The notes under the pieces were generated by a model. The model did no database searches, had not been told where the DNA came from, and saw only the letters and a list, made by a program, of their open reading frames with translations. A DNA stretch of 64,000 bases, from positions 3,596,001 through 3,660,000 of the forward strand of contig CM039001.1 in NCBI GenBank assembly GCA_017499595.2, given 5' to 3'. Made by a program: the position numbers and the translations under genes. This stretch comes from Psilocybe cubensis. Its lineage: Eukaryota. Below are positions 1-48,410 of this stretch, piece after piece. Position 1 is the stretch's first letter, and every line of letters begins with the position of its first letter.

Positions 1-1806
1 AAACAATGTCAGTAAGCACCTGACAGTCAACGAATCAAGTGAAACCACATACTGTATAATTAAATGTGATATTTTAATACGTTCCACCCTCTGGTTACAA
101 GCTTCCAGCTCAACGTCTGCAAAGCCGTCGGGGGTAGTGCTTTTAACGATGCCATAGTACCCCTTGAATGTATTATTCCCGACAACGATGACACTCAAAC
201 CTATATAGACGTCGTTGTGGTCTCTTTCTCCAAGCTTTGACGAATGACGCTTTCGCGGGCGAAGAGTAGCATGGGCAGGGGGGACGTAGAATATGACTGT
301 GTGGATGGGCACAATGACCTGAAAAATGTGTTGAACACTACTGAGACAAAGAGAATGACAGTTCACCTACTTCGCGTTCGTGCTCTGGGGCGATAATACA
401 AACAGATCTTCCATCAAAGTCTGACACCCATCCATGGAGATCTTTGTGATCCCCTTCAACGACTTCAACACTATCGCCTATCTGGAAAGCTGCACGTAGA
501 TCGTGTAGTGCAACTGCTTGTGTTATACCTTGGGAGGGGATGTGCACTTCCACCTCAGCGTCAGAAACACTCTTGACCGTTCCAAAAAGACCTAAGTATT
601 CTCCACCAATAATTTTGACTCGATCATATCGTTTCAGTCGAGTCATGGAGATGGCTTTCGAGGCTTGCGCTAAGGTCTCCGTCGTTACAAATGGACACTC
701 GCGAAATTGCTCCAACTCGGACGATGTTGGGAGGACATTGGAAAGATATTTGAGATCGATGGCGTCGAAATCCGTGATAATAAATCCATCCTGGAATATC
801 CTGTCGAGGTGCGATTTCTTGATGTTGTCCGGAGGTCTGGGGATAAGAACAACACTTTTCCAACCCTGGAATGTGAACACAAGGCCGGTAGCATTTGCGT
901 AGGTCGTCCAAGCCTTACGCTTTCCAGCAACCTTGACCCACGATTGGTCTTCAGGGCGTGAGGGTGGGGGATGAGATAGGATCTCCATACATCTCTCCGA
1001 GGATAGCCTAACTAAATGTGTCGGATTAAGCTCTCTAACGAGGCAGGCTAACGTATGCGCATGTTGCATTGATGGCGCCTCGACGTAGATTCTCCCAGGA
1101 ATTGAGGATTGAGCGAAGACAGACCGGGCAAGGATGATGGGAAATGTAGGGTTCGTTGACATCTGCATAATTTTGAAAGCGACGGCCTCTTCGCGTCCAA
1201 CCTATCACTCGTAAGGTGATCAATAAATGCTGACTGAAGACTTATATTATTTTTGCGTACCTTGCAACCTATTTCATACATGATATCAGTCGCGGAAGGC
1301 ATATAATTATTATCACCAAGTCCTCCTGGTTGGGGATTGCCATATTTCTGTATAAGTTCTCGTGAACTAGATGGCTCTATATCATTGTCAGGACGAATTT
1401 TCATGCGTGAAGGCAGAAGCATGGGCAACAAATCGCTCCATTCATCAGTGTTATCTGTATTTTGCATGGCATGATATAGCCGAGAGTGTGCAACACGTTC
1501 CTCATCCTCAGAGTATTCATCGTTATCATTCACTGTATGTCAGAACCCATTAGCATCAGTACATATTGAGCAGAATATATGTAAATTATTGGAACATACG
1601 TAGTTGGCCCCCTTCATAATCAAGCTCTTCCGAACTTTCATCATCATCGGAAACCGCTGCTTCAATGTCTATGAAGGGATTAATGTCCTGATTTTTTGAG
1701 ATCATAATTAAATTTCCCTGAAGTTAGTGATTAGATGGAGGGTTGGATTAGTACACACTGTGCGGTTGCCTAGGCTGTCAAGTCGTCTGCGTTTATAACT
1801 AGACAT
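1..1806 (-). CDS. Spt5-like protein (acidic N-terminus, NGN domain, several KOW motifs); multi-exon, runs off the left edge
   Basis: Predicted start MSSYKRRRL (ATG at 1806), then INPFIDIEAAVSDDDESSEE (resembles the Spt5 N-terminal FIDxEA motif), NGN-like SIPGRIYVEA, and KOW-like LKRYDRVKIIGGEYLGLFGTVKSV, FQIGDSVEVVEGDHKDLHGWV and VYIGLSVIVVGNNTFKGYYGIVK. It is too divergent to be the housekeeping SPT5. Confidence 0.75.
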
Positions 1807-1946
1807 TGTGGGTCTTAAAGACTGTTAATCGATGTTCATCTCACTTAATTTATCATCTTAACTTGTGATAATTTATTTTTAGATACTACACAACCTATTA
1901 CTATGATAAGACACTATGATGAACGGAAAGAGAAAACATATGGTGA

Positions 1947-2141
1947 GAAACACGCTATTTCCGGAGCGATTCTTTAGGGTAGGTTTCCCGTCCTGAAGTC
2001 ACGAGTTGGTTAAAAAAACGCCCCCTTACATCAGCCGCATCACGGTGATGCGGCTGATGTAAGGGGGCGTTTTTTTAACCAACTCGTGACTTCAGGACGG
2101 GAAACCTACCCTAAAGAATCGCTCCGGAAATAGCGTGTTTC
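1947..2141. repeat. Perfect palindrome: 97-bp arms around a 1-nt spacer (G2044), with imperfect outer arms extending to about 1914-2174
   Basis: GAAACACGCTATTTCCGG...CAGCCGCATCAC-G-GTGATGCGGCTG...CCGGAAATAGCGTGTTTC; outer CTATGATGAACGGAAAGAGAAAACA pairs imperfectly with TGTTTTTCTTTCCGTTTGTCATAG. Confidence 0.97.
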
Positions 2142-2317
2142 CAACTTGATTGTTTTTCTTTCCGTTTGTCATAGCGTAGTACCCCTCCCCATAGATTTAA
2201 CATACATTCTAATAAAATAGACATAGACAATACTCTAGACACTCTATAATAGTTTTCGTTCAGTTAAAATTCATCTAGTTGAAAATTTGAGACACCAGAA
2301 AAAAACACACAAAAAAA

Positions 2318-5300
2318 AGTAAGTACCCAAAGAAATAGAATGCAGGGTGAGACGTTGAAGTTTTGTAGTGCAAGCCCAGAAGATTTCCCCCGTTGCCCGA
2401 CTCCAAGCTGAAGAAATTCTGGCGTTTCCCTTCGAAACGCAGGTCGTTCGTCAGACTCTGGAAAACATGTTGCCAGAGTCGCACCCACTCCGCGTAGGTC
2501 TTAATTGGATTGCCATTTATGGTACTAATATCAAGTTTCTGTAGAGGATGGTGGATTTCCTCCGACGATATGAGGACTTCACCTTTTTGAATTACGATGT
2601 TTCATCATCGAGCATGCGAGCGGCCATCAAGTATAGGCAAAGCTTGGCTGCCCTTCAGAACAGCATCGTAGAGACACCCTGCGTAACCTCGGCTACATGG
2701 GAGCAGGCGGGTAGCTTATTTGCAGCATACCGTCTACTCGATCTCGTAGCGTTGTGGCCAGCAGCCTTTGGACCATCGTTGCCGGTGACCGTGCCCCTGA
2801 ATGAAATACAGGCCAGCACAGGAACTAAGGAAATATTTTCACGGTTCAAGGTATGCGATCATGAAGTCACTCAATGTTAATTCTTAATTTTCAAACAATT
2901 ATTGTAGCTTGTAGATGACTTGAAGGACTGGCCGGCAATGCTCTGCTCTGCCAGGAAGCGCATCCTCAGAGCCGACTCTAAGTCGCACAGAAACATCAAC
3001 ACCCCTTCTATCAGTGACACGCCGTCATCCGCTTTCACCCAGGGCGGGCCCTCGGAATCAACGCTATTACTCTGTCTGGCGCGTAACCACTTCAAGGGTG
3101 TTGTGGGGAAAATAATCGGGAATGTGTACTGCGCCTCGCTACACTACCAAATCTTGTCAGGAATGCGCGGTATGAAGGACGATGAACACATTCTACCAGA
3201 CATTCCAACGGACACGGCTACTCTTGCAAATCTCTAGTAAGTTTTCTTTCCTCTATTCATTGATACAATCTGCTCAACATACCCTAGTGCAAGCGGCCAT
3301 CCTGATGCTGCGTTGTTCCTCTCAGAGGTCACGCCATCTCATTTAAAAATTCCTCTGCATGTCGCCCTTTTCATATCCCCCATCCTTCTTTTTGTGAATA
3401 AATCTTGGTATTCTAAGAAATGTGACCGGGAGCAGCTGCTTAAAGTAGGTGTATCCACATCCTCCCAGTTTAACTTGGATTAACGCACTCCTTTAGGCCT
3501 CAAAAGCGCTCGGTAATTGTCGCCCCCGTGTTCTGCGTGAAGTGGAGATGGAAATTTGGAAAATCATTGCAGCGCAAAATTGCGACATCCAGTCAGCCTT
3601 ATATAAACTTGTTATCTCAGACTGCTGGATGGAATGCGAGCGGGTAATTGCACAAGATCCCGCGTTTCACTTTTTCATATGTGTGTTCTACGTACTGTAA
3701 CAAAATAACAATTTAAACTAATAATTGGCCAGCGTCAACGAGCAGCGCCGAGGTTACAGCAAATTCTAACCTAGCAAGGCGCAGCACTGAACCACACGGT
3801 AAGTTATAAGCAAAGTCTGCGTCAATTACATGATTTAAATCCGTTTAAAACAGCTCAACTTCAGACCGTTTCCCATCATGGTGAAAAAACCACCTGTGAA
3901 GGGTCCGACGCAGACGCGGAGGGTGACGATGATCACGAAGTGGACACGACGGAAATGGTCAGCATGGGTCAACGGGAGAACGGGGACAATACGGTCCCTA
4001 CCTCAAATATACAGCCTCCGGAAGACACGTCTTCAGTGGCTGGCAAGGATGTCAGCATGGGTCAACAGGAGAACGGGGACAATACGGTCCCTACCTCAGA
4101 TATACAGCCTCCGGAAGACACATCTTCGGTGGCTGGCAAGGATGTGCCCACGGACGAGCAACCTGGTTTGCCGCGGAGTGATGATATTGGATCTGGTCTA
4201 CTTCAGACTGAGAATACTGGGCCCTCAACTGCAGGGGATTGTGAGATGAACGTCGATCCGGAGCAAGCTGATGTCGACCATCAAATGGAGGATGGTCCAC
4301 ATACCAATGGTCCAGAAAATTTGGGAGACGGCGGGGCTGGACAAGGAGCTGAAGGGTCTTCTGACGAGGCAAATCGTATGTCGGAAGTTCACGAGGGCGA
4401 AAAGCAGGGGCAAGACGGAGAACGACCCGACAAGGAGAACCGAATGTCAGAAGATGGTGAGGAGGAAAGGCCAGACGACAGTTCGTCGGACAATGAGACC
4501 GAGAAGCAGGGGCAAGGGGATGTTCCACCAGTCCAGGAGGACAGAATGTCGGTCGATGGAGAGGGGGTAGGCCCAGAGCAAAACAATGATTCCTCAGACA
4601 TGGAGAGGAATACATTGGAAGACAGCCAAGGCGAAAAGGAGGGGGAGAACGCACCTCCTGCTCCTCTTATTTTGAGGATTCCTCCTGTTTCCCAGATAAA
4701 CAGGAGCAAAAACACCACGGCTGACTCCTCTCAGAAAGGGAAAGGGAAGGGCCGGCAGAGCCTTTCCAAGCGGCCTCCCAAACGCAAGCCGACGCAGGCT
4801 ACCGACACATTTGATTCGGACGACGACCTGTGTATTGATGTCGATCTGTACGACAGCAACACCACCCTTGATGTCGTCAGCACTCCGGAGAAGGTGTATG
4901 GCACCAAAGTTTGGTCCACCTACAACGGTCGTGGCCAACTTAAAAGTTTCTGCGTTGTTGCCCATGTAAGTCATTCTCGATATTGATTTTTTCGTCATTT
5001 ATTTATTCTCCAAACAAGAGTCAAGCCGACGTGGATCGTGTTGAAAGGGTTCTGGAATTGGTCGAGAGTGACTACGTCGATGGAGTTCCATTGCACATAG
5101 CACGTCCCGAAGAATCATGTTTTGCGGTATTCGACCGCAGCACCACGAAATCCATGTATCTGATGGAGTCTTTCTCTGAAAGGAACGTCGTCCTTATGTC
5201 TCCTTCTCAAGAGGAGTCTATTTCAACTTGCTCCGACGAGTTCTACAGCCAGGTACGTCGCCATATGGGTGATATGACGAGCACCAGGTCAATCCAAGGT

Positions 5301-7030
5301 GTGTTTCCTCTTCGATGTTTTGATTTTTCTTTCTGCGTCTCATGCTAATGGCCGTAACAGATATGTCGACCATGTCGTCTAACCCCATCGAGAGGATTAA
5401 GCGTGGGTCCCTCTCTCAGGTCATGGAAGCAGCGAGGATGAAAGGCAAAAGAGGAAAGATCCTCAATGCCCTCGACATCCCTTTACCTCATGCAGGCGCT
5501 CACTCTTTTGACTTGAGTACTGAGGCGGCTGCTCTTCGGGCTACATCTGGTAGCTGGAAGTATAGTACCCCCGTCCCATTTGGTGATATGTCGTGGGGAC
5601 TCATAGCTACAGAGGGGGCATTTTCAGATATCCATATCGATGCCAATGGTTTCTGTTCCTTCATCCAACCTCTTCATGGACTGAAGCTGTGGATTATCAT
5701 GTATCCCAGACGGTTGGATGTTGACCTTTCTTCTGACCGCCGTGTATTTCTGGGAGACAAGCTGGATTACGGGGAAACGCACCACCAAGACTGAATTTAC
5801 GAGGCGATTGTTCTCGATAACCAGTCAGAACTGTATATGATTTTTGAATGTCCTACCCATTTGATTATATTGACGCTACTTTGAAAAACAGCTTCATGAG
5901 ACCGAATACTCTACATATGGCGTATTCTATCTCCTCAGTGGTTTGCCGTGGCGGACATTTTTACTCCTCCACTTCCTTCGAAGAAACCCTGACAGGAATC
6001 ATTCACTGTTTTACCGCTGGATACAGGGCAACGAATACGAATCATTCAACGTCCCGATTTTTCCTGCAGCAAACCATACATTGGTTCTACAAGGTTTTGG
6101 TTGAAGGTGACAGCGACCCAGAAGGTATGAGGTTTTTTACCGTTTCCTACAAGATATCTGATTCTTTTCTTCTATTTTCTCTCAGATTTTTATGAAATGT
6201 ACCATGTCCCATTCTACAGTACGCAGTCCGGATACTCGAGCTTGATAGCTCTGTGCGTGTGCATGATCTTGGCAAATGCGCTCGACTACGAGACCTATCG
6301 AAATCCCGATCAGATGTTCTCCACCAAGACTTCGGCACAGTTAGACGCATGGATGCGGTGGAATACCAACAGCCTGAGCGACGAAGAGCGCAAGGCGTGC
6401 ATCTTTGCCCGTGGCGAAGCCTTGGCTATTCTAGAGTGGCTATGTCATCGCACGAAGTCCATCCACTACATGATTGAGACGGACAAAAACAAGGATGCAC
6501 AAAATATCATGGCGACAGAAAAGTTCCATGAAATGATACTTTGCCGCTATGCCCGTATGATTCTAGCCTACGACGCAGAAGCCAAACATAACAACATTGG
6601 TGGTGCCCCTTGCTGTACCGACACCAGTTTGCTTTTTGTCCAGCTTCAGGGCGTCTGCAGCGGAGAATTGAACAAGGTTATATGTCGCAGTATCGACCAG
6701 CTTCCTCGTTCCTCGGTCCCAAAGATGCTCAAGTTACCCGTAATCACTCTCATTGACTGTGATGCCTGTGCGGATTCCTCAACGCAATTGAGTAGGTGGA
6801 CCAGTGTCTGCCTTTGGATATTCACTAACCACGTCACAAACTAGGAACTCCCAAGGAGATTCTGGAACTTGGTACGAGTGTGAGGGATAAACTGTATCTG
6901 GATGGCATGAAAGTCAAGCTGGAGAGCACAAATCCGAGTACGTGTGTTCGATTATGCCTTTACGTCGCAAATGCTTATCTCTTCATCAGAATCAGAGTCT
7001 GTTCCGCCTTCTAAACGACGGCGACTTTGA
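2318..7030 (+). pseudogene. Large multi-exon JmjC-domain (2OG-Fe(II) dioxygenase-like) gene with one in-frame premature stop
   Basis: JmjC motifs WGLIATEGAFSDIHIDANGFCSFIQPLHGLKLWII (HxD) and LFMRPNTLHMAYSISSVVCRGGHFYS (distal His). TGA at 5792-5794 sits in-frame before IYEAIVLDNQSEL, which splices in frame to FMRPN. Acidic low-complexity middle (3940-4965); C-terminal PSKRRRL. The start and the joining of the upstream exons are inferred. Confidence 0.7.
3958..4143 (+). repeat. 93-bp coding tandem repeat, 2 copies (31 aa VSMGQxENGDNTVPTSxIQPPEDTSSVAGKD)
   Basis: Direct repeat starting at 3958 and 4051, visible in ORF 3940..4986. Confidence 0.95.
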
Positions 7031-7083
7031 TATTGTACAACACATTGACACACATCTTGATTTACATACATGCCATGTTTTAT

Positions 7084-7422
7084 TTAGTACTGAAAGGCGT
7101 GTATGTCCTGTAACATAATGACGATTGTTTTATTATCTGTAGTTGTGTGCTGCTCGTATCGCCAGACCAATACGCAAATTCTCGCTGGGATGAAAGCTTC
7201 TGGCTTTACTGTAACTGCTGTGCGTTTGAATTTATCATCAAGGTCAATGAAATCAACTAACTTACGTTTGTTGATGCTTCTTCCACCCACTTCAAAAAAT
7301 GTGTTAGTGTCTTTGTTCTGGTGCGTATATACAGTAAAGCTCTTCCGAAGCCCTCCTTGGATTGTACTACGGATTGGTTGAATACTAACCCATGTGAAAT
7401 TTGTTTGTATTAACGGAGACAT
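7084..7422 (-). CDS. Small (112 aa) beta-rich hypothetical protein
   Basis: Uninterrupted ATG-initiated ORF (MSPLIQTNFTWVSIQPIR...DNKTIVIMLQDIHAFQY) filling the gap between the JmjC and transposase genes; alternating hydrophobic pattern; family not recognised. Confidence 0.4.
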   Translation of the reverse strand: MSPLIQTNFTWVSIQPIRSTIQGGLRKSFTVYTHQNKDTNTFFEVGGRSINKRKLVDFIDLDDKFKRTAVTVKPEAFIPARICVLVWRYEQHTTTDNKTIVIMLQDIHAFQY

Positions 7423-7501
7423 AATCAGATAACATTTATAGACCCACTGCACGTTACTAAACATTACATTATCAGTTTTTTTTTCGTATCTTCGCTTTTG
7501 T

Positions 7502-10500
7502 ATGAGTCGTTGTTTCAACATGGGAAAGGGCAAGGGCAAGAGAACTCAGGAAATCTGTGTGCGTTGTCCTCGATGCAACAAGCCATTCGCTAAGCATGCA
7601 GATGTCCAAAATCACATCAATCAACCAAAATCGGCATGTCGTTTTCAATATGAGAACGTTATGCATTTTCAGTCCAATCGTTCAAGCTCTACATCTAAAT
7701 CAGCAACCCCCGTATCTCGAGACCCTTCTCCCGAAATTGGTAATTTTATGGAAGTGGACTATATCGACAATTTTCTTGGCGCGTCATCAGAGATGGAAGA
7801 TGACCCACCCCCCAAGGCATCAAAATACAACTATCCGTACGTGAAGGAGGATTATAACGGGGCTGGAAGAGCATTTGGAACAGGCCTTACATTCATGGAT
7901 CAGCTCAAACAGGATCAATTCGAACCCCAGCGGGCGGAAAATTTGTACTATCCTTTTGCCTCGAAAGATGAATGGGAGCTCTCCCTGTTCCTACTTCGCT
8001 CTGACATGAGCGTAGGAATGCTGAATGATTTTTTGAAACTTGAACTGGTAATTGAGCGTACATTCCCATCATTATTTATTTCAGCTGAGTCGATCCCGTA
8101 TAGATAAAAAAACTCAACTTGTCCTACAAGTCGGCAAAAGATCTACGCAACCGGGCAGAGATCCTTCCCTCTGGTCCGCAGTGGAAGAGTCAAACGATCA
8201 TACCAGAAATACCAAGCAAAAATCAGCTAACGCTTTTTTACCGCGATGGATTGGAATGTATCAAGGCGCTTCTCATCAGTCCCTTGCTCCAAGATAGCAT
8301 GCACTTTAGCCCATTCAAGCTCTTCGACAAGTGCAACGAGATGATGCGGGTATACACTGAGTGGTTTAGCGGTGACATTGCGCATTTTATGCAGGTTAGT
8401 AGCAATGCCTTTGTCCAAGTTTGACGACAGTATAACAAGGTTCCCAAGGACCAGCTCCCAAAAGGAGCAACACTTGTACCTCCTATTATTTCCACGGATA
8501 AAACCAACATTTCCAACATGACCGGAGGCCGTGTCGCCTACCCTGGCCTTATCAGCATTGCCAACATAATGATGAACGTTAGAAACAAATCGTCAAATCA
8601 TTTATTCCTTCTTTTTGTTCTTCTTCCCATACCAAAGTTTCTTCATCGCTCCAAAGCTGTGAATGGGATGATGGCAGCACGGCTATATCACCAGTGCATG
8701 GACATTGCTCTAGAATCGGTCAAACAAACTGCGAGGGTGGGAACCACCATGGCAGATGCATTGGGGAATAATTGTTTCTGCTTTACACCGCTTGCTGCCC
8801 TTATCGTTGATACTCCAGAATCTGCTCTGGCGGCTTGCGTCGCAGGATCCACATCCTCTGTGACGTTGGCACAATACGAGACGTTTGGGGATTCCTTTCG
8901 CCACCCTTCCCGAACTGCAGATCATACAATCAACACCATCATGGCCATCAACAATGTTAAGCCCCCTAATCATCTCGAACCATATCTAAAAGAAAGCAAA
9001 AAGCACCGTCTCAATGGGGTTCACCTACCGTTTTGGAGAGATTGGCCCTTGTCTGATCCTTCTGCATTCCTTACGCCTGAACCCCTTCATCACTGGCACA
9101 AGATGTTCTGGGATCATGATGCAAAATGGTGCATTGCTGCAGTCGGAGGTTCCGAATTGGATTTTCGATTTTCGATTTTACAGCACCGCACTGGTTTCCG
9201 ACACTTCAAGGAAGGGATTTCTTCCTTGAAACAAGTGACCGGTAGGGAACATCGGGACGTTCAGCGATACATTGTTGCTCTCATTGCAGACACAGTCAGT
9301 ACACCCTTTATCTTAGCCATCCGGTCTCTGATGGACTTTCGGTATCTCGCACAATCTCAAACAATCTCCGAGGCAATGTGTCTCAGAATTGAGCAGGCAC
9401 TGCAAGATTTCCATGCCAATAAACAAGCCATCCTTGACGCGGGAGCACGTCGAGGTAAAAAAAACAACCCAATCGATAATTTCTATATTCCAAAACTCGA
9501 GTTTTTGCAAAGTGTAGTACACGCAATTAGACTAAATGGATGTGCAATCCAATGGTCTGCAGACACAACAGAGCATGCACATATCGAGGTGGTCAAAGCC
9601 CCTTCCAGTTCCAGCAATAATCAAAGATACGAGCCTCAAGTTTGTCGATACCTTGATCGTCGTGACAAATTGCGCAATTTCGATTTGTTTACAGCTATAC
9701 GAGAAATGAGGATTGATTTTCGGGCTATACACTCTGCAACAATTACGGATGAGGAGGAGCAGGAGGAGGGGGATGAGGGGGAGGAAAACGGCGAGGTTGT
9801 GATGGACACAACGTCAGAACTTCTTTCAACAATCATGCCGATGACAACCTTTCAATCAGCAAAGTCCAATCGCATTGTGGATTACTTCTACAAAGCTAGT
9901 CTCTATGAGCGTGGCGTATTGGAAGGCCCAGTCCCCTACAGAACATTTTCTTGCAGCAAAAACGTTGTTGCCCATTTATCTAGGGATGCTAGTTCCAAAA
10001 GATTGCATATCGACGAGGTTGCGAGCATTTTTAAAATTCCCGACCTACGACCAGCAATTGCCGATTATGTGTCACTCATCAATAAGGAATCAAATCCGAG
10101 ATACACCAATTCTCGAGGTTATCACATCAAGGGGATAACTGGCAGGCGTGTTTCTCCTCCCGGTTGTCCGTTGCCGTATTCAAAACTTGAGGTATGGCAT
10201 AAGGTCCGTATACAGTCGACTGCGTACCAATACCCTCATGAGATCCTGGAGGCAGTCACACTTAATGCATATCCGCCATCTAACAAACATCCTTTTGGAT
10301 ACTTCGATTCAGCAATCATAAACGTGGATGAATCTGAGGAGTGGCCTCGCAGCGGGCTTCAAGGTAGTACTTCTTTGTGACTTTTTTCCGAACCCCGTTG
10401 ACCAGCCAATATTGTAGGCCATTCTGTCGTCGACATTCGTATTATTTTTCGCATTGTCGGAGAGACACCCAGTACTGTGTCTCCCGATATTACTGGAAGA

Positions 10501-10806
10501 TTTCTCGCATACGTCCAACGTTTTGAGGTTTTAAATCAGCCACAGTCTCTAGGTTCTGCGATCCGTGGACCTTACCCAGAGCCAATAACCGGCATGTATA
10601 AATTAAAACGAAGTCAACGTACAGATAACACCATTATGGGTGGAATTTTACCATTGAATCAAATACGCTCCCTGGTTGATCTGGTCCCTCAGATGGGCGA
10701 GAAGGCAAGGCAAAGCCTTACTACACATAACAGTCATTCCACTAGCACCGAGTTCCGATTAAACAAATATTTTGACAAAGAACTCTATTTGGCCCTGTCA
10801 TCATAA
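7502..10806 (+). CDS. Plavaka-type transposase with an N-terminal C2H2-like zinc finger (about 4 exons)
   Basis: CPRCNKPFAKHADVQNHINQPKSAC finger; YYPFASKDEWEL, LFYRDGLECIKAL, ISTDKTNISNMTGGRVAYP, PLAALIVDTPES, PEPLHHWHKMFWDHDAKWC, GFRHFKEGISSLKQVTGREHRDVQR, WSADTTEHAHIEVVK and C-terminal FRLNKYFDKELY are characteristic of basidiomycete Plavaka proteins. No stop seen in the predicted exons. The start may be 7502 or 7520. Confidence 0.88.
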
Positions 10807-10846
10807 CATATCCACCTCAGGAAACCCACAAAGTTTTCAATCCCTA

Positions 10847-11355
10847 ATGCACATTGCCACTCAAATTATCACCCAACACGCCGGCCTCGTTGTACACAAA
10901 GACGACTCGGATCAATATCAACAGCCGCTTCTCACCAGTCCCGCTTTCTCACACTGTATCATCGTCACCTACTGCATATCCCTCCATCCATCTCATCTCT
11001 GCAGAATCAAGTCGTTCTCGCTCATCTTCCGCTCACCACCGCCCAAACTCCAAAGGATTCTTCCCAGAGTGCCTCTTCCTCTAAACAAAAATTCGCCTCC
11101 AGTCTTGTCGGTCCGTCCTGTCCTCAATTAGCGCCCATCTTGCCGGAGATACTCACTTTATTTTTTCAATTCCATTGCAGATTAAGCTGTCAGCACCTTA
11201 TCTGAGATCTGGCGCCCTCAAGACATTCCCTTCCTATTTCTACCCACTGAAGTCCTTTGAGGATTGAGGACATCTGGAAACATACTGCAGACAGCACTAT
11301 GTTATCTCGAAGCCATTCGTCCCAAGGTTTCCAAAATTTGCAAGAGGAAAGCATT
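10847..11355 (+). pseudogene. Degenerate, internally deleted upstream copy of the cyclin-like gene
   Basis: About 10962-11234 is a direct repeat of about 11395-11668, including the intron. GAT CAA has become GAT TAA (11183-11185). 11264-11350 encodes the cyclin-box fragment RTSGNILQTALCYLEAIRPKVSKI. Confidence 0.8.
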
Positions 11356-12490
11356 GGCCTCTCTCCCACAATCCATACCTGCCATGCCTCTGTATCATTA
11401 CCTACTGAATACCCCTCCATCCGTCTCATTTCTGCAGAATCAAGTCGTTCTCACTCATCTATTCCACCCACCATTGCGCAAATTCCAAAGGATTCTTCCC
11501 AGAGCGCCTCTTCTTCTAAACAAAAATTTTTTTCAAGGCTTGCCGGTCCGTCCTGTCCTCAATTAGCGCCCACCTTGCCGGAGATACTCACTTTATTTTT
11601 TAAATTCCATTGCAGATCAAGCTGTCAGCACCTTGTCCGAGATCTGGCACCCTCAGGATATTCCTTCCGTGTTCCTACCCCCCGCCAAAGTAGGGGGTAG
11701 CTCTTTTCCTCCTACTCATTCCCGTCCAACTTCCAAGCAGATCTCTTCCGATTTGCAATCCATAGCGTCTCATACACATCCAATACATCCACACAACAGT
11801 CATCCCTCCGTATCCGGCCATAACCCTTCCCCGACCCTCTTGCTTGCCTCGGGCACCAAATCCGATCAGATATTACCCCTCAAGTCTTTTGTTTATAAAG
11901 TCCTTCGCCACTCAAGGACATCTAAAAACGTACTGCAGATAGCACTATGTTATCTAGAATCCATTCGTCCCAAGGTCCCACAGATTTTGCAAGAGGAAAA
12001 CATCGGCATTCGCTCTTATGCTCAGCCCAAAAGCAGTATTCAGAAAGCTACCCCAGAAGAGCTGGCGATGGATGCTGAGCTTACTGCTCTTGAGAACTCC
12101 GGCAAGATCAACATCATCAATAATTTCATTGACAATTCTATGCAAACATTCCGTGTTGCCGATTCTGGTTCACAAGATCTGGCTGAATCGTGCATCTATC
12201 CACAAGACTCTCTGTCCAGCGTAGATGTGCAGGTCTCAACGGCTCCTCTTTCCACCACCCTTTCTTTGCCATCTCCCCTCCTGTGTCCCCGTAGAGCCTT
12301 TCTGGCATCCCTCATCCTGGCCTCCAAATTTTCACAAGAAAAGTGTTATTCTAACCGTGCTTGGGCAAGGTTATCTGGTCTCCCACCTCGTGAAATTGGT
12401 CGCTGCGAACGTGCCCTCGCACAAGCCTTGCAATGGCGACTCTGGGTCGGCAAATGCGCCTTTGGTGAGAGTGCTGCAACTGCCACATAG
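11299..12490 (+). CDS. Pcl/Pas1/Clg1-type cyclin-box protein (start uncertain; intron 11546-11615)
   Basis: DQAVSTLSEIWHPQDIP, LPLKSFVYKVLRHSRTSKNVLQIALCYLESIRPKV and LLCPRRAFLASLILASKFSQEKCYSNRAWARLSGLPPREIGRCERALAQALQWRLWV match the fungal Pho85-type cyclin box. Confidence 0.82.
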
Positions 12491-12734
12491 TCTCAATAAG
12501 TTTCAACTTTCACGACCGCGCCATGTAGTACGCATTCTCAATAATCACTCTTTTGCTTGCCACCACTACGCGCGCTCCTCCCGCATTCAGTTAGATAGGC
12601 ATCTTCTTAGACTAGCCTAGAAAAATCTATAGAACTTTGTTTTACGTATACAGAACCCCTGAAGAATTTTTATACCCGCGAAGTTTGTTTTCAGCTTGAA
12701 TTCCAACTACGACAAAGTGAGCGTATCACACACC

Positions 12735-13285
12735 ATGCAAATCATCAGCTATGAGGAAATTTTACAAATCGAAGCAGAAGTATTGGCCCCTACTTTCCCA
12801 GATCTAATACATCCTACAACTTTCCCAGAGGCCGCCTCACTTGCTTCTCAAAGACAGCAATACGACTTGGAAATGGCTCAGTTAGTTGAGCAGACCCAAA
12901 AAATGGTCCTTTTGACCGAGAACAGGCTGATACTGGCCATCCTGGCCCTTTTCAACGAAATTAACTGGACCACCCTGGACCCAAGGTTACTATCGTTGGC
13001 TAAAGCCAAGATTACCGAGGGTGACCAGTGGCTCAAAGCACGAGCCGTGAGTTTTCTGTTTCTTCAAGTTTCAAGTTGATACTCTTGCTTAAGATAACTA
13101 GGAGGAGACACTTCGGGATGCAGACTCAGGCAGCCCCGAGCACATATTGACCCAAGGGATGTCCATTATAGCCAACGGCCAGATTCATATTCGAACGGTA
13201 GAGGTGAGTCACAGTGATAACTACTTTGTTTCTACACTTTCTTAGTAATGGGCAGGATCTCATACGAGAATGTCAGGATCATTAA
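12735..13285 (+). CDS. Small helical hypothetical protein (3 exons, about 147 aa)
   Basis: ATG 12735 MQIISYEEILQIEAEVLAP...WLKARA, then two short GT-AG introns that keep frame to ...DLIRECQDH stop. Confidence 0.55.
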
Positions 13286-14575
13286 TAGGGTCAAGATACT
13301 ACATTGTAAATAGACACTTAATTGCCTTTAAAAATGTACATTTTATTGCTTGATATGATTGAAGAGCTTTACTGAGACCAATCACATTGGACATCAAACT
13401 CTCCTAAGTCTGGAATCGTACATAGAGATAGCTAGAAAAATCCAAAGCTCGCAGTAGTAATGTTGGAATGCTACAGAGCTCAACGGAGCATCCCGCCGAT
13501 GACACATGACGCTATACTGTCTACAGCCCACTTTGATGCTACATCCGGTTGGCAGGACAATACGTTGAGTTACCTCCGAAAATCCGGATTTACTGATGCA
13601 GTTGCCACAGCGAGCGGGATGAACAATGAGTGGGCTTACCTGGCCTATGTGCAGCCTCAAACCCAGCCACCATCAAGCTACCCTTGTAGCTGCACAAATT
13701 GCTTAGAGTTGGGTCAGAACCACATTGTTGTAGAAGACGGTACGTGATTCAACCGGTCACAACCTTTGACGACGCCCAGTCTATCTCATCGACGACGAGG
13801 CGTCTTGGACTCGTACGCACTTTCATTTTGTCATTACAATTTCTATATCACATTCAAGTTTCCATAACTCCCCTTACTTCTTTGTCGCATTTGAAAGCAA
13901 CAATTTCAATGCATGGATTGTTTGCGGCAGCATCAAACAGCGTGAATTCATTGGTTGCCTTAAGACCAGTCATTAATAGACAACAATACAACCATTACCC
14001 ACCTATCCGCCCTGGCCCTGGCAATACGTCATGATCGCTACAATTTGGATACCACGGGACTGTCAACTACTCAGTTATGATGTCCCAGATATCTAACGTG
14101 GTCGAACATCCAGTTGAGGCTGCTTTATGCAAGGCGGATAGCCAACTCTTGTCATTTTTATACCTTAATCAAGGCGCCGTGCCCCCACCCTCCAGACACT
14201 ATGCGCCTTCGTCGTTTTCACAAAAGTATGACATATGTTTGAGCGGTTTAAAATAGCATCCATTCTGCGCTTTTGATTTATATCGGAAGGTAAGTAATCA
14301 AGTTAACGATTCTCCGTTGGTATGAGTAACATGATACAAAGATCGTAAATTGCAACACAGTGGGCAACGGATGAGTCACCATTCCGGTTAGACGGCTGTT
14401 AAATTTCTTGCGGAAAGCGTTTGATGTTGTCGAACTCAAGGGTTATATTGAATAATGTAAGTGCATTGGTGCTCTGCCCTGACTCCTGGAGCATCGTACA
14501 TAAACAGACCAGCATTGCGCCCAGTAAGCTGATAGCTTTTCTTCGTGCCACTCTCGATTCAGTTTAAAGGTGGAG

Positions 14576-15952
14576 ATGGCTAAACTACCCATTCGTCAAA
14601 TTTCCTTTGACGAGCACAACCATGATGGAAGACTTGTTCAAGACCCAGCTAGTTGGGCCATTGGTGAGTATGAACATCATATTCTCATTTTTTTGACTTA
14701 GTTGAAGTTCCAGTGGCTTCATTGGTTACCCAGGTTTGGGAAACCATCATTTGTTTCCCTGAAGAAGTTGAATACCTTTGGAGGTACGAGTCTTCCTAGT
14801 TTAAGCAGTGCGTCTCATCTGATGGTAGGGTGGCTGATGCCAGAGGAAAACTGGGGGGTGTAAAAGTACTATACATTTGTTCTCGATATTTAATGCTGTT
14901 GGGTCAAGTGTACGTTGCCACATTTGCTGCTTCAGAACTGCATCGATAACTTTGACGATCATGCCCACACAGGGCGAATCAAGTGTTTTCCGTCAGGTTT
15001 TTTGGCTATGCACCAAAAGATCAAGCCCTGTGTAAGGAGGCATTAATCTCACAAGCCATTTTTACTCAGTTGGGAATCTTCTTGATGGAGGCGGTCATGA
15101 TGTTAAGAGGTGCGTGGTTGAATTGATTCAAAACCAACTGATTTTGATGTATGACCTAGTCTTTGCGCTTTATAATAAAAACCCCAGAATCAAATGTTTT
15201 TTGTTGGGTATTTTTGCGACTTCAATTGGGTTGGAATTATGCGGTAGTGGAGATTTTATCCGCATTACTACAAGTGCGTCTGGATGCACCCCTAAGGGTA
15301 TAAAGAACGTGAGTATATACTATTTCTGGTACGTGGGGAAGACTACTATATGGATACACCAGCTCTAACTGTTCACCAACCCTAGTGCTGGTGTCATGTT
15401 AGGGCAGAGCGTGCTCGTCGTAGCTATGCTCATTGGATTAATTTTAAGGCACCGCTCAGGGAAATCACGAACACCGCTTGTGGCCATGCTCCTGAATCAG
15501 GGTCTGGCAACTTTTGTCCTCGTCTTTGGTATTGTATATTTTACTCGCTTGCGAACCATGCTGTTGCTGATTGAGCATGTGACAGCTCTTATGTCCAGTA
15601 TGATAATTTCTAACCTTTTCCCTGATCTTGTCGAGGGACTGCACAGCGGATATGCTGTGATGTTGTAAGTTGTTCATTGTATATATAATAACATAATAAA
15701 TGACCTAACATTAACCAACTTGAACTCATGGCAGTTGGTATACTACTCTTCTCTCAATTGGTGTAAGTGGCGTTCTAAGTTTTTTCAAACGTTAAAAGGG
15801 GACGCTTCATTGATTTCCAGACTTGTCGACTCGTGCTTCAAATGTGGAAACTAAGAATATCCGAAACCACTATGGTCAGCCCACAAGGGGAAGATTTCGA
15901 GCCGAGCAGCTCCATAGTTCTAACAAGTGTTGTGCCCGAATCCCAGTATTAA
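14576..15952 (+). CDS. DUF6533-type multi-pass membrane protein, copy A (multi-exon)
   Basis: VASLVTQVWETIICFPEEVEYLW, VKVLYICSRYLMLLGQ, MLRVFALYN, LLNQGLATFVL and TCRLVLQMWKL motifs with short GT-AG introns. Confidence 0.8.
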
Positions 15953-16238
15953 TCCGCTGCCATAATCTCTCCGGCTTATCCAGTTGCCAGTGACAATATC
16001 TACTCCCGGGGTTAATGACCCTTTGTTTCGTCTCCAAAATCTTATTGACAATTATAATAGGTTATCTATTCTACCCCAGCTATCCCTGATTCCTGAATAC
16101 GCGAGGCAACCCTGATTGCTTTGAAGCACTTAAATTAGCACATGAAAATAAATTCTGCTTCGATGCATATCATCGTTATTGTGACCGTTGTAAACTGTCG
16201 TCCCTTTGCGTCCTTGCTGAAGTAATTGCCAGCTACCA

Positions 16239-17724
16239 ATGCCAAATTCATTCTTTCAAAAAGATTCCGTCGACGTGCATACTTATCATGATCATGGAGC
16301 ACTCTCTCAAGATTCGGCCAATTTAGTGACTGGTTCGTACATCTTCATATTGTCTCTATTACCAACCATCAATTTAAGAAATATTTTAGTTGCGTCACTG
16401 GTTGTCCAGGTTTGGGAAGCTGCTGTCTGTTTTCCAGATGAGATCCAACATCTGTGGAAGTATGTCTCAGTTTATCTATTATCCAAGCCTAATATAAAAT
16501 GACAACGGAATAAAGAGGGGACTTATTAGGCGCTGTAAAGGCACTTTATGCTTGTTCTCGCTATTTGATGCTCCTGGGTCAAATGTATGCTTTTAAAATA
16601 ATTGATTGCATGGTTTAGTGCACTAACTTGTTCATGTAGAGTTAATCAAGCGCTCTCCATCTATCTTTTTACGCATCCATTGACAGACAGGACTCTATGT
16701 CGGACTATCTCAATCTCTCAGGCAATATGTATGCAAATGAATGTGTTCTTTATGGAGGTGGTCATAACCTTAAGAGGTGCGTAAACGCACAGGCTTACTG
16801 GATAGTTCAACTTTACTTATTTTTTCGTCAGCATTTGCACTATATAATCAATGGCGTAGAATCAAGTTTTTCTTTCTCTTTGCTTTCGCTACTTCAGTCT
16901 TGTTGGAATTTGGCGCTACTGGAATTTTTATTCACACAATGATTGCTCCATCAGGATGCAACTTTTCACCGGCAGCTGGAGCCAAGGATGTGAGTATATA
17001 CTTTTTCAGGTAGGTTTTGCGGGCCAGATTATACACAACTGTTTTTCCGACTCTAATTTTTTACAAATTCTAGCGCTGGTGCGGTATTAGGCCAGATTGT
17101 CCCTGTCGTGTCAATTGTTACTGGTCTAATTTGGAGACATCGTTTGGGAAAATCGCAAACACCTCTTACATCTATGCTCTTGAATCAAGGTTTGGCCACC
17201 TGTATTTTGGTCCTTGGTACTGTATTTATTATTACCTTCCCCGTCCGCAAACGTTGAACGTTGATCACTGACCTATCATTGTCAGCTCTTGTTGTTAGCA
17301 TGATGATTTACAACTTCTTTCCCCAACTCCGCCTTGGAATGCACGATGGACATGCTATGTTATCGTAAGCGGCTTTTCACTTTCAATAATACTACGTAAA
17401 GGCCTAACTTTAATTTCAAAGATGGTACAACACTTTGTTGTCGGTTGCAGTAAGCGTGTTTTGTTACTATACATTTGACTATTTTCGCAACTTATTCTAA
17501 TTATTTTGGATTTTGTACGGCAGACTTGCAGATTATTGCTGCAAATGTGGAAGCTAGCCGCGGATGAGAGAGAGAAAAATTATCCAAGGCGGGATGCTTT
17601 GAACCGAAGAAGTTCCATTATCCTGACCACTGTTATCATGGAATCACATCGTCAAATTACCGACACGACTAGTACTATGCCGACTTATTCAATCACGACC
17701 CCTAAGAATACCAGGATGAAGTGA
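16239..17724 (+). CDS. DUF6533-type multi-pass membrane protein, copy B
   Basis: VASLVVQVWEAAVCFPDEIQHLW, VKALYACSRYLMLLGQ, TLRAFALYN, LLNQGLATC and TCRLLLQMWKL; same exon layout as copy A. Confidence 0.8.
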
Positions 17725-18870
17725 CTTCGGATTACTCTATCTGTAAATCTAATATGTATATATGAACACTTGAATAGTGAGAAATAGTGAACAAATTGCT
17801 ACCATCACTGGCTTGAGACATCTAAAATCGGGTCGGTCTGGTCCACGCTCTGTAAACCTCTAGATACAGAACATTTTAGAGGGTGGTAAGTTTAGTTGAC
17901 ATAAAAATGTAGAAAAAAAAGAATCAATACCCTCACACGATGTCCGCGCAACAGTTACCGATCCACCAAGGGATCGGACTGTCTGTATATTCGTCACAGA
18001 CACCGCCTTTGACATATCTGTTGCATAGTACATTTGGTGAATCTAATGCTGCAGGGTCAATGTGGAACATTACTTACAATCAAGACAGTTCGGAACAGAG
18101 TTTAGCTTTTAGTAAGGAGGTGGTAACGGCATGGCTATGGTGCTGGCATGCATCATCGGACTCGAACTATGATCTTTGTCGAACTCGAAGCAAATCTAAA
18201 CGACTTAATCACCTGAAAACGAGTTGAAAATAATCTCAATCTTATGACTAAGATCTAGAAACGCAGTCAATCGAAAACCGCTGGAAACTCTCCATGCCAA
18301 TTTCCGTGAAAACCTTTCAATCGCCGCCTATGATTCTCACGGAAGTTGCCGTGACATATAGGCACGACAGCTTGGCACAGCTAATAGCGTCCACCTGGTC
18401 CGCCTAAATCTGAATACAAGCCGAGCATTAGGTTGGCACTAAGTTAGAGGACCCCACTGCCTCGCGTCTCACCCGCTATGCATCATTTCATGACGGTGCT
18501 GTTGAATCATCCTTAATTTATAAAAGCGTATTGTATTAATCGCCGTCCATTTAGCTTACTGGTTCTAAGTCTTGAAACGATATATCAGAGTCAGGTTTGC
18601 GTGATATTCGGTTGTGATCCCAGGTGCCCGCTCCTACCAGAAACCATTGAACCGACGAACAGAGCGGCTTTTTCCACCAGGAACATTTGATCCCATTAGG
18701 TGACAAACCTGTGATGACGCCGGTGAATAGCAAGAGGTCAACCCTGATGCGTTGCAACGTACGTATGTCACATATCATGGCACGACAATTACCCACTGCA
18801 TTTGCATCTCTTGCAACGCGTTATATTCGCCCCATTTCTCTATCGTTGATTTAGTGGTTGCAAACTACCA

Positions 18871-20294
18871 ATGATACACCTGCTCCCTAAGATGATTCAA
18901 GCCGTCGACGAAGAAACTCAACTTCGAGCATTTGTGCTAGATCCAGCTAGTTTGGCCACCGGTGAGTATGAATTTCATGTTGTTTTCATTGTTTTAATTA
19001 ATTTATAGCTGCATCACTGGCTGCCCAAGTTTGGGAGACCGTCATCTGGTTCCCTGATGAGGTTGAGCATCTGTGGAGGTGGGTACCACATTGTCTGTGA
19101 AAGTTTACTTCTAATCTAAATCCGTGCCAATGTCTTGTCGTGGTTCAAGAGGTAAACTCAGCGTTGTAAAGATGCTGTATCTCTGTTCTCGCTATCTAAT
19201 GCTATTGGGACAAGTGTACGTGTTACTCCTCTTTATTGTTTCATGGCCGCATATCTTAACATGTCTGACACAGAGCAAATAAGATTCTTTCTGGGTATCT
19301 TTTTTCATATCCAGAGTCAGCCGCGGACATGGCGCTTTGTCGGGGGGTGATTATTTCACAAGCTGTCTTTACCCAAATAGGGCTGTTTCTTATAGAAGTG
19401 GTCATAATACTGAGAGGTAAGTACTGAGTAAATGCTCAGTATAACGATTCTGATTCTATATCCTCTGATCTAGTTCTCGCGCTTTATAGTCAAAAACCTA
19501 GAATCAAATTCTTCTTGTTGGGGGTCTTCACTACGTCAACATCCCTAGAGCTATGTGGTAGTGGAATTTTCATTCGCATGTCGTCCATATCGTCAGAATG
19601 CCACTTCTCTGGCGTGAAGAATATCAGCATATATTTCTTCTGGTGCGTTTGGTTTATCTATCATATTTCTGGAAATGTACTTATTCATGAAAAACCAGTG
19701 CTGGTGCCGTATTCGGGCAGACAGTACTCGTTACAGCGATGCTTATTGGCCTCATTTTGAGACATAGGTCAGGGAAATCACGAACTGCTCTTGTTTCCCT
19801 GCTCCTAAACCAAGGTTTGGCGACATTTGTACTTATTCTTGGTATGCCATACATCACTTCCTTTCCACGCCATTCTTGGCTTATTGCGATTCCGTTAGCC
19901 CTTGTGTCTAGTATGATGGTCTACAACTTTTTCCCTCGTCTTGGCATGCACGAAATAAACGCTATATTGTCGTGAGTCGTTTTTGCATTATTCAATTAAA
20001 GATAACTCTAACTTGAATTAGCTGGTATAATGCTCTTTTGTCCATTGGAGTAAGTAATTGTTCCATTTTGCTATTTAACGTATGGTCTTTTACACCTGGT
20101 TCCCCGTCCAGACATGCCGGCTCTTACTTCAAATGTGGAAACTAGGGTGTCACGATTCAGGGAACGACCCGAGAAGAGACGAAGTGGAGCCACACAGCTC
20201 CATTATTTTTACCAGTATAGTCATTGAATCATGCTATCAAACCCCCAGCGCCCGTCCAACTTCGAATACAGTGCGGCCGACAGCGTCGAGTTGA
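18871..20294 (+). CDS. DUF6533-type multi-pass membrane protein, copy C
   Basis: ASLAAQVWETVIWFPDEVEHLW, VKMLYLCSRYLMLLGQ, LLNQGLATFVL, TCRLLLQMWKL. Confidence 0.8.
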
Positions 20295-47143: not shown

Positions 47144-47960
47144 AAGATGAGTAACACTCCCCCCCTTGAACAGTATATCCACCGAATAAAAATTCTGCAG
47201 ATAAACCTGAACAAGTCAGAAGTCGCGCACCTCGAGATTATGAACGCAAACCTAGGAAGCGAGTACGACATAGTACTCATCCAGGAACCTCATATCACAC
47301 ACTTCGGGAACATAAGGACGAGCGCCCACTTCCGCCCTATCTACCCAGTCGGATGAGCAGGGACGGCCACCACAAGGTCAGGCATCTGGGTCAACAAACG
47401 GCTGAACACAAGCCACTGGTGTGAAGTAGCGATTCCCGAATCGAACGACATAACTGCAATGAAACTCGAGTGCGAAAGAGGGACGATCTACATCTTCAAC
47501 GTCTACCACCCAGGGCGCACGGGGGGAACACTTCAAGCACTCCAGCGGTATCTCGATAGCCATCGCAGGCAACTACGCGAACCGAATACATTTCAGATCT
47601 GGGCGGGCGACTTCAACCAACACCATCCAATGTGGGACCGCGACGAGGACGACAGACTCTTCACACCTCAGGTGCTGGCGGAGGCCGATAGGCTGATCGA
47701 ACTCGTCGAGGAGAATGGGCTGTCAATGGCATTACCGAAAGGCTTGCCGACCCTTGAACACATGGTAACGAAAAAGCTGTCGAGACCTGACAACGTTTTC
47801 CTTACAGAGGCGCTGCTTGAACATGTCATCAAATGCAATGTCGATTACACCAACCGTCCTGCCAACACCGATCACTATCCGATAGTAGTCGAGATTGACG
47901 CTAGATGTAAGCGAGCCGACGCCACACTCGAGAGGAACTTCCGCACGACCAGTTGGGAAC

Positions 47961-48410
47961 TGTCAGGGTTTCTCCAGTTTCCCCTCTTTATCTTCACAGA
48001 ATTATCTTATCCTTTCATTATCTTATCAATTATCTGATTAGATAGTTTATTTCTTTCATCACAGCCTTTTTGCTCCACTTCTTTCTAGTAAATTCTATAT
48101 GATTCCTAGTCTTACTCATCCTTTTTCTATATGATGTCACTTTTATTCTTTAACCTTCCTTTATGATGTAATGTAGGGAATATTCTAGAATAGCTGTAAA
48201 GTATAAATACTGGACTTGTAGGTAGCTGTAGCTTCAGCTTCAATCTCTTAGGATATCCACTATCATTGGTGTGATCTCTTAGAATCATTGAATCTCTCTC
48301 ACACTCTTATTCTCTCTTTGCTCTCTTATTCTCCCTCTACTCTCTCTCTCTCTCCCTTGCTTGATCTTTGTTGGTGGCCTTGTCACACTGATTATAGTGT
48401 TGCCCTGACA
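47961..48410 (+). repeat. 5' LTR of element 2
   Basis: TGTCAGGG...CCCTGACA; TATAAATA at about 48202; two substitutions versus the 3' LTR seen by eye. Confidence 0.97.

Follow-up and report, generated by a model that had tools for sequence, protein, structure and literature searches.

Few transposons are known to carry epigenetic tools of their own: VANDAL elements with VANC, fungal elements with TET/JBP genes and red-algal Plavaka elements with a methylase and an oxygenase. VANDAL elements belong to the Mutator group and encode VANC as an anti-silencing protein, as cited in the available sections of a preprint on the red-algal elements (bioRxiv 10.1101/2025.02.11.637652), and the same sections name TET/JBP as the only accessory gene known from basidiomycete Plavaka elements. 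For the PlavakaB lineage, the accessible text of Kojima 2025 (PMC12730594) gives the termini 5'-CATCA..TGATG-3' and target-site duplications of 2-3 bp. Our study examined 64 000 nucleotides of Psilocybe cubensis (contig CM039001.1, positions 3 596 001 to 3 660 000), a stretch referred to here as the window. Positions 1-13598 are most probably the right-hand 13.6 kb of one autonomous cut-and-paste DNA transposon, related to CACTA/EnSpm and belonging to the PlavakaB lineage (CMCT clade), in which the transposase is accompanied by an Spt5-like gene, a JmjC-like gene, a probable cyclin gene and a small gene. The complete element very probably measures at least 18 kb and has recently multiplied to roughly 16 copies.

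Extent, right end and copies of the element

What was observed directly for this element is its set of genes, the number of its copies, their collinearity and the end that they have in common. Public reads were mapped on window positions 1-20000. In run X14, which consists of raw DNA reads with the same species label, depth over 1-13340 was flat (bins 404-603) with a mean of 529.7, compared to a mean of 32.5 (25-39.7) over the flank at 14008-20000, giving an element-to-flank ratio of 16.3; the drop from ~590 to ~31 fell within bin 13341-14007. The contig word depth of run X9 was also raised, by approximately 8-fold (610 for the element, 76 for the flank). The right end was located at 13598, where 343 reads had loose ends with a mutual agreement of only 0.37, which indicates many different flanks behind a common end, and the flank contigs of runs X9 and X13 start at 13599. 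The terminus reads GGATTTACTGATG up to 13598 and closes with the hexamer CTGATG; its last five bases (TGATG, 13594-13598) equal the published PlavakaB 3' terminus, and the right flank opens with CAG at 13599. Inside the unit, the best-supported loose ends comprised 38, 17 and 13 reads, about as many as single variant copies would give. This lack of strong internal loose ends indicates that the Spt5-like, JmjC-like, transposase, cyclin-like and small genes are contiguous in nearly all copies. To the left, the element continues in an X9 contig of 6364 nt (depth 550), bases 4389-6364 of which correspond to window 1-1976. This contig reaches 4388 nt beyond window base 1, and the element is therefore at least ~18 kb long.

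The copies were also evident among the public gene models. A cluster at 90 % identity held 39 P. cubensis models, including the best match of the exon that bears the HxD motif of the JmjC-like gene, and its 15 listed members, together with two models from two smaller clusters, were distributed over 8 different contigs. By tblastn, the sister models P0010 and P0012 span window 2467-12487 and P0016 spans 2467-13203, all collinear with the window, with 13-23 mismatches per 1087-1492 residues (~98-99 % identity). The order of the parts was constant, namely N-terminal domain, acidic repeat region, JmjC-like domain, Plavaka transposase and cyclin-like protein, to which P0016 adds the small open reading frame (ORF) at 12735-13285. 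On a 4.19-Mb contig, JR316_0004105 and JR316_0004106 (Spt5-like, 98 % identical) directly precede JR316_0004107-0004109 (N-terminal piece, JmjC and Plavaka), and on a 3.62-Mb contig the accessions of a 603-amino-acid 'SPT5' model and a JmjC model are two numbers apart.

A first-pass annotation, made from the letters of the window, had proposed one mobile unit of transposase and cargo at 1-13300. The single unit was borne out by the 16-fold depth, the common end and the collinear models on 8 contigs, whereas its limits had to be moved, the right end to 13598 and the left end to outside the window. It had also stated that a single-copy block, or a failure of these genes to co-occur with Plavaka elsewhere, would speak against the idea; what was found instead was approximately 16 copies and models that repeat the order.

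The state of the copies points to a recent burst, as 42437 of the 51170 mapped reads were at least 99 % identical to the window. Deletions in other copies were seen at 7782-9157 (27 reads), 8775-8831 (22 reads) and 9995-10091 (9 reads). Among the 25 best-supported differences within the unit, 22 were A/T in the window copy and G/C in most reads, and the consensus was CpG at 12 of these 22 private G:C>A:T changes. Such changes at CpG are the mark of methylated-cytosine deamination, and the sequence pattern suggests that the copies are cytosine-methylated by the host and are decaying by deamination. Run X13, which was taken to be RNA, gave contigs on the flank only and is uninformative on expression of the element. 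The 23-nt terminus occurs once in the window, and neither a second copy nor a fragment of the element was found in the window beyond the unit. As a candidate for the left terminus, a perfect 14-nt pair at 7332/13361 was considered and rejected, being at chance level for 20 kb, without a matching duplication and inside the unit defined by the reads.

Run X10, which is labelled as a different organism, gave short element contigs of 99-100 % identity and depth 2-8 over window 1-13300, and its flank was nearly uncovered (depth in one bin only, 16009-16675). The signal may mean that another species harbours this element too, or that material was carried over from one sample to another.

Gene content and surroundings

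The Spt5-like gene lies on the minus strand at 1-1806, running off the window at base 1, and encodes an acidic N-terminus, an NGN domain and at least three KOW-like units. Its start codon is at 1806-1804, and the exons delimited by tblastn of P0025 are 1806-1759, ~1702-1601, ~1533-1234 and 1201-368. The first-pass annotation of an NGN/KOW gene of Spt5 type was upheld by Pfam matches above the cut-off in the minus-strand ORF 338-1201: KOW2_Spt5 (E-value 1.2e-13, 51 bits against a cut-off of 28.9), KOW (9.8e-8, 32 bits against 22.3), KOW5_SPT5 (1.7e-7, 31 bits against 27) and Spt5-NGN (4.2e-5, 23.8 bits against 22.4). An additional KOW5_SPT5 match in the minus-strand ORF 1-366 (5.7e-6, 26.2 bits) fell under the cut-off of 27. 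The sister copy P0025 gave the same NGN/KOW matches and a weak Spt5_N acidic region (E-value 0.0077), and Pfam returned no match for the distal (3') part of models P0024 and P0025, a part of the gene that lies off the window. A 'near' homology search for relatives of the Spt5-like protein gave one cluster of 3 and a 'longer' search gave none.

The Spt5-like and JmjC-like genes are divergent from a shared region of 660 bp and, as had been noticed in the first pass, both encode the motif KRRRL, which was found at opposite protein ends: at the N-terminus of the Spt5-like protein (MSSYKRRRL, 1806-1780; KRRRL itself at 1794-1780) and at the C-terminus of the JmjC-like protein. Exact KRRRL occurred three times in the six frames of the 64 kb, and two of these occurrences are the ones at these protein ends. 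The shared motif may be a nuclear import signal, and we take it to resemble RxL cyclin-docking motifs as well. Between the two genes lies a near-perfect palindrome of 267 nt (1911-2177), with arms of 133 nt that are 92 % complementary and a single-strand fold of -149.3 kcal/mol (z -28). Its centre (2029-2059) reads CATCAG...CTGATG, the hexamer of the true terminus, with TA on both sides. This centre may belong to a bidirectional promoter, or represent a footprint or a pseudo-end inside the element.

The JmjC-like gene occupies 2467-7030 on the plus strand, with ~1330 codons in ~10 exons according to tblastn of P0016, P0009 and P0010. Its product begins with MLPESHP at 2467 and consists of a conserved N-terminal domain, a long acidic repeat region, the JmjC domain and a helical C-terminal part that ends in KRRRL and the stop codon (7013-7030). 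The sister-copy models assign the ORFs at 2545-3483 to the 5' exons of this gene. Two orphan ORFs had been listed in the first pass, and these exons account for one of them. The catalytic core was placed at 5633-5925 (plus strand) and comprises HIDANG at 5633-5650 (HxD), GLKLW at 5678-5692 (the 2-oxoglutarate (2OG) lysine) and NTLHMAY at 5905-5925 (the distal histidine), with an intron at 5833-5891.

Pfam was silent on this protein: the four ORF pieces at 4944-6844 matched no family at an E-value of ≤0.01, none of the four reached the gathering score of the JmjC model, there were no matches in P0009 or P0005, and the N-terminal domain was without a Pfam match. Across 55 relatives there were three sub-threshold matches to PF02373, one to PF08007 and none above the cut-off. 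The JmjC-like proteins are thus a divergent family outside Pfam coverage. This family is large, as an exhaustive search gave 787 cluster representatives at an E-value of ≤1e-3 and 268 at ≤1e-10. In a homology search with the HxD-bearing exon, the P. cubensis matches were 98-99 % identical, and two proteins of Galerina marginata, annotated in UniRef as JmjC domain-containing, were at 39-40 %. In Galerina relatives of 946-1082 amino acids, the match extended over the N-terminal and JmjC domains as well as the C-terminal part.

A profile of four family members, searched against PDB sequences, gave 13 matches at an E-value of ≤1, 12 of which were KDM7, PHF2, PHF8 or KDM2A, and it aligned the HxD motif, the lysine and the distal histidine with the Fe/2OG residues of KDM7/PHF8/PHF2 chains. 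Among 72 aligned relatives these residues were kept in 64 (H), 64 (D), 65 (K) and 68 (H). An AlphaFold2 model, which was built from the 72-sequence alignment for the sister copy P0007 (a paralogous copy of 98-99 % identity, not the broken gene of the window), had a predicted local distance difference test score (pLDDT) of >90 over approximately residues 360-770. The best Foldseek matches to this model were ceKDM7A, PHF2, KIAA1718, PHF8 and KDM2A (E-values 1e-13 to 1e-11, probability 1.00), followed by JMJD6 and then by chains of KDM6/KDM4/KDM5 type, and there was no TET chain among the matches listed down to rank 50. The JmjC call rests on this fold and profile evidence, which identifies a KDM2/KDM7-like dioxygenase of predicted activity.

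A TET/JBP identity of the PE type was considered and rejected; the motif is HxD and not HxE, and the nearest structures are JmjC demethylases. In the accessible text of PMC12730594, PE-type TET/JBP proteins from fungal transposons are characterized by HxE, with CMD1, NgTET and CcTET as the nearest structures.

The window copy of this gene contains a premature stop (TGA, 5792-5794, plus strand) between the HxD motif and the distal histidine, where the frame reads THHQD-TGA-IYEAIVL. Sister proteins read W (TGG) at this point (THHQDWIYEAIVL), as does a relative of 57 % identity, and base 5794 was G in 558 of 596 X14 reads, so that the stop is private to the window copy. An intron at 5744-5803 that would remove it was ruled out, as the sister copies read straight through. 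Models P0018 and P0011 carry the private residues of the window and break exactly at 5791 and 5917, and they are probably the window locus itself. The HxD...H dioxygenase-like gene claimed in the first pass is therefore supported in its motif and in its KDM2/7 fold and profile; it is broken in this one copy and is not recognized by Pfam.

The transposase gene runs on the plus strand from 7520 to 10806, or to 10380 if the last part is not spliced on (Pfam; tblastn of P0019 and P0016). Its modules are a C2H2-like zinc finger (7556-7615), the Plavaka catalytic domain and, after it, DUF6830 (E-value 5.1e-45). The catalytic domain PF18759 was matched at 1.1e-16 on 8104-8424 and at 4e-63 on 8425-10380, together covering positions 1-325 of 325. 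The frame of the window copy is open, without an internal stop, in agreement with the apparently intact transposase that the first pass had reported. In the public models P0010, P0011, P0012, P0015, P0017 and P0025, the transposase is fused with neighbouring cargo in various ways. Fused models carry names such as 'G1/S-specific cyclin pas1' or 'transcription elongation factor SPT5', and could distort counts of host cyclin and Spt5 genes.

The cyclin-like gene lies at 11600-12490 on the plus strand, with an uncertain true start, and is probably of the PHO80/Pcl type. In the ESM Atlas, the top three clusters were PF08613 at 0.93-0.91 and 15 of 30 matches fell in that set; 'G1/S-specific cyclin pas1' was the source name of five of the 15 listed models in the 39-member cluster. 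The Pcl/Pas1-type cyclin of the first pass thus finds agreement in the Atlas clusters and in the source names, and not in Pfam, where its matches were sub-threshold only. A phmmer search with this protein against PDB sequences gave no match at an E-value of ≤1, and a single-sequence AlphaFold2 model had a mean pLDDT of 38 and was unusable. Upstream, part of the gene's 5' region is directly duplicated (10961-11340, plus strand; repeats D2, D7, D10 and D13), matching 11394-11680 and 11898-11987 in tandem at 80-95 %. The duplicated part includes the first cyclin-box helix (NILQTALCYLEAIRPK compared to NVLQIALCYLESIRPK).

The small gene (12735-13285, plus strand, ~3 exons) encodes a mostly helical product, forms part of the sister model P0016 and had no Pfam match at an E-value of ≤0.1. 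It is followed by a non-coding 3' terminal region (13286-13598), which ends in the terminus. Pfam searches of the visible part of the element found no DNA methylase (PF01555) and no SET (PF00856) match.

Directly to the right of the insertion, at 14600-20000, are three tandem paralogues of an intron-rich gene, with repeat units 64-84 % identical and a start-to-start spacing of ~1.68 and 2.63 kb; an intron at 15763-15820 (GT..AG) was confirmed by a contig of the run taken to be RNA. Further to the right, 36500-57500 is a transposon nest with two Ty3-type long terminal repeat retrotransposons that have open gag and pol (37242-42691 and, with a chromodomain, 48873-53899) and a long interspersed nuclear element (LINE)-like element (47357-48034, endonuclease; 54351-57494, reverse transcriptase/RNase H). 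The window beyond the element also holds a malate dehydrogenase gene.

JmjC-like relatives, a proposed role for the cargo and its alternatives

A scan of metagenome contigs identified 48 loci with JmjC-like relatives. Pfam was run on ORFs of at least 170 amino acids from 33 loci of at least 3 kb, consisting of 12 of the 13 loci of at least 9 kb (L013 was omitted, its ORF layout being that of L012) and 21 loci of 3-9 kb, and it covered 79 of 90 and 70 of 75 ORFs in two listings. At three loci, an ORF with the Helitron Rep/helicase (RepHel) was detected by Pfam 0.8-1.3 kb downstream of the JmjC-like gene and on the same strand (L020:1095-11242, L033:589-6097 and L046:3359-13313). These three loci share 76-86 % DNA identity across the JmjC-like gene and RepHel, and keep the HxD motif, the lysine and the histidine. 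That the gene and its residues were kept at such divergence indicates that the gene has been retained in a diverging Helitron lineage. A Helitron N-terminal domain was found at a further locus (L014), and no Plavaka domain was found in the Pfam scans of the 33 loci. Judging from these sequences, Helitrons also seem to have a member of the JmjC family as an accessory gene. In four of 32 long JmjC-like relatives (P0133, P0144, P0151 and P0162), the predicted protein also includes a Ulp1 (Peptidase_C48) domain; Ulp1 protease domains are common in plant and fungal transposons. One locus (L015) was observed to hold a JmjC-like gene and a Tet_JBP ORF (E-value 7.8e-9) 4 kb apart, at 3653-4726 and 8704-9219.

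By analogy with the fungal TET/JBP elements, the red-algal Plavaka and VANDAL/VANC, the accessory genes, which are complete intron-containing genes, would most plausibly act on the transcription and chromatin of the element itself, and we propose tentatively that the cargo serves the element. The first pass had likewise suggested a cargo that counters host silencing through removal of repressive marks, promotion of elongation and recruitment of a kinase. In such a scheme the transposase, with its zinc finger, DDE domain and DUF6830, would cut and paste the whole unit. The JmjC enzyme would strip repressive histone methylation (H3K9, K27 or K36) at copies of the element, or would act there in the manner of Epe1, an anti-silencing JmjC protein of fission yeast. 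The Spt5 paralogue would bind RNA polymerase II (Pol II) through NGN, keeping elongation processive along the long unit, and the Pcl-type cyclin would direct a host cyclin-dependent kinase to these factors or to Pol II. The broken JmjC gene of the window copy could be served in trans by other copies. A bolder version, which we regard as rather unlikely as a whole, is that the Spt5 paralogue, the KDM2/7-like JmjC protein and the cyclin form a self-contained module working on its own copies, maybe linked by KRRRL(D) for nuclear import or cyclin docking, that would keep an 18-kb element transcribed in methylated heterochromatin, with a JmjC family that would be mobile, as TET/JBP genes are, between the unrelated superfamilies Plavaka and Helitron. 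If true, histone demethylation would be a second, independent anti-silencing strategy of fungal transposons.

Several observations weigh against a single autonomous element with serviceable cargo. The left terminus and the target-site duplication fall outside the window, beyond which the unit extends by at least 4.4 kb, so that only one boundary of the element is defined; an empty site was not observed, and neither an inverted repeat of the 13598 end nor a matching CATCA end was present anywhere in the window. Only three Spt5-like gene models were found compared to 39 for the remainder of the unit, and the adjacency of the Spt5-like gene in all copies consequently rests on read depth and on the missing loose ends. 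The cyclin-like protein reached only sub-threshold Pfam scores at residues 243-292 of ORF 11567-12490 (Cyclin_N, E-value 0.0032, 17.6 bits against a cut-off of 23; Cyclin PF08613, 0.0049, 17.7 bits against 21). The JmjC gene of the window copy is broken by its private stop. A tblastn search (E-value ≤1e-3) of the 48 metagenome loci found none with a Plavaka transposase, Spt5-like gene, cyclin or small ORF, which indicates that the cargo set is not a general Plavaka feature. The copies are too alike for selection on the cargo to be read from them.

Some of these points are equally those of a reading in which the same single mobile unit exists and its extra genes are neutral baggage, captured from the host or a foreign source and intact only because the burst is recent. 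We consider this a real possibility, short of a probable one and about as likely as a cargo that serves the element, and gene capture is known for plant CACTA and Mutator elements. Among copies that are at least 99 % alike, intact frames are no proof of selection, the window copy has already lost its JmjC frame, other copies have internal deletions, and none of the 48 loci with JmjC-like relatives shows Plavaka, Spt5-like or cyclin neighbours. Baggage fits less well with cargo genes that are complete and multi-exon rather than fragments, with a JmjC protein that matches its Galerina relatives throughout, or with catalytic residues that are kept across the 72 relatives; the diverged Helitron lineage, which keeps both gene and residues at 76-86 %, indicates conservation over time.

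The unit itself can also be questioned. It would be composite if an element had been joined head to head, at the palindrome, to a second element or to foreign sequence; the Spt5-like part would then be a separate unit that travels with the JmjC/transposase part or is merely its neighbour. The CATCAG hexamer at the palindrome centre does resemble a pair of Plavaka ends, and at this point depth dips to 404, odd joints and read starts cluster at 1884-2083, and X9 contigs break at 1976 and 2112. Palindromes alone produce such read artefacts, however, and CATCAG/CTGATG is only mildly special within the unit (13 occurrences compared to 6.7 +/- 2.5 expected). Depth is equal on both sides (left 491-542, right 501-603), internal loose ends amount to no more than 38 reads compared to 343 at the true boundary, and Spt5-like and JmjC genes are adjacent at three loci, all of which makes a composite origin improbable. 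A multiplication without transposition, by segmental duplication or as an artefact of assembly, gains some room from a target-site duplication and an empty site that are not checkable from the window. It would have to produce an exactly common end with a lineage-specific terminus and many different flanks, an open and complete transposase frame, copies on 8 contigs and an excess of depth in an independent raw-read run, and we regard it as scarcely credible.

Comparison with known systems

The nearest relatives of this PlavakaB-like element, in the accessible text of PMC12730594, are the PlavakaB elements of Agaricales with TET/JBP. They share with it the transposase lineage, the 3' TGATG and an Agaricales host, as well as a 2OG/Fe(II) dioxygenase as cargo and a proposed escape from silencing. 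The enzyme is a different one, TET/JBP with HxE there compared to a KDM2/7-kind JmjC with HxD here. JmjC, Spt5, KOW and cyclin each had no occurrence in the main text of that paper, whose TET-less Plavaka families are in its supplements.

Giant Plavaka elements with chromatin-related accessory genes are already known from red algae. The Bostrychia elements with the accessory genes PAG1-3, as presented in the available sections of bioRxiv 10.1101/2025.02.11.637652, measure 17.4-19.1 kb compared to at least 18 kb here; they likewise carry several accessory genes for chromatin or DNA modification, including a 2OG oxygenase, and show proliferation of one family. Their cargo consists of an N6-adenine methylase with SET, a ParB-like protein with a 2OG oxygenase and a gene of unknown function, and the JmjC, Spt5 paralogue and cyclin cargo of P. 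cubensis differs from this set. In the same sections, VANDAL/VANC offers a further likeness, as a DNA transposon encoding a factor thought to undo its own silencing; the protein is unrelated, acts by DNA hypomethylation rather than by putative histone demethylation, and belongs to a plant host.

Two further comparisons concern individual proteins. The KDM2/KDM7 demethylases (JHDM1, PHF8, PHF2 and KIAA1718) have the same fold, and their HxD...H triad and 2OG lysine align with those of the element protein. The latter is without PHD, CXXC and F-box, has an unrelated N-terminal domain and acidic repeats, and is encoded by a transposon. Specialized Spt5/NusG paralogues include plant SPT5L/KTF1, ciliate Spt5m and the bacterial RfaH-type factors on plasmids and islands; these are second NGN-KOW proteins for special transcription units, some of them mobile or transposon-related. 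The Spt5-like gene of the element is, compared to these, known from sequence only, with its C-terminal part off the window. To our knowledge, no Spt5 paralogue inside a eukaryotic transposon has been reported, and this may be the first to be seen.

In summary, no description of a JmjC, Spt5 and cyclin cargo in fungal transposons was found in the literature, supplements being outside the scope of the search. P. cubensis is amenable to cultivation and transformation, and its copies of the element are near-identical, which makes protection from silencing by transposon-encoded factors directly testable in this organism. Alongside VANDAL/VANC, the fungal TET/JBP elements and the red-algal Plavaka, the P. 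cubensis locus contributes a young, apparently active fungal element of ~16 copies with a different set of tools, the JmjC relatives of which also ride in Helitrons.

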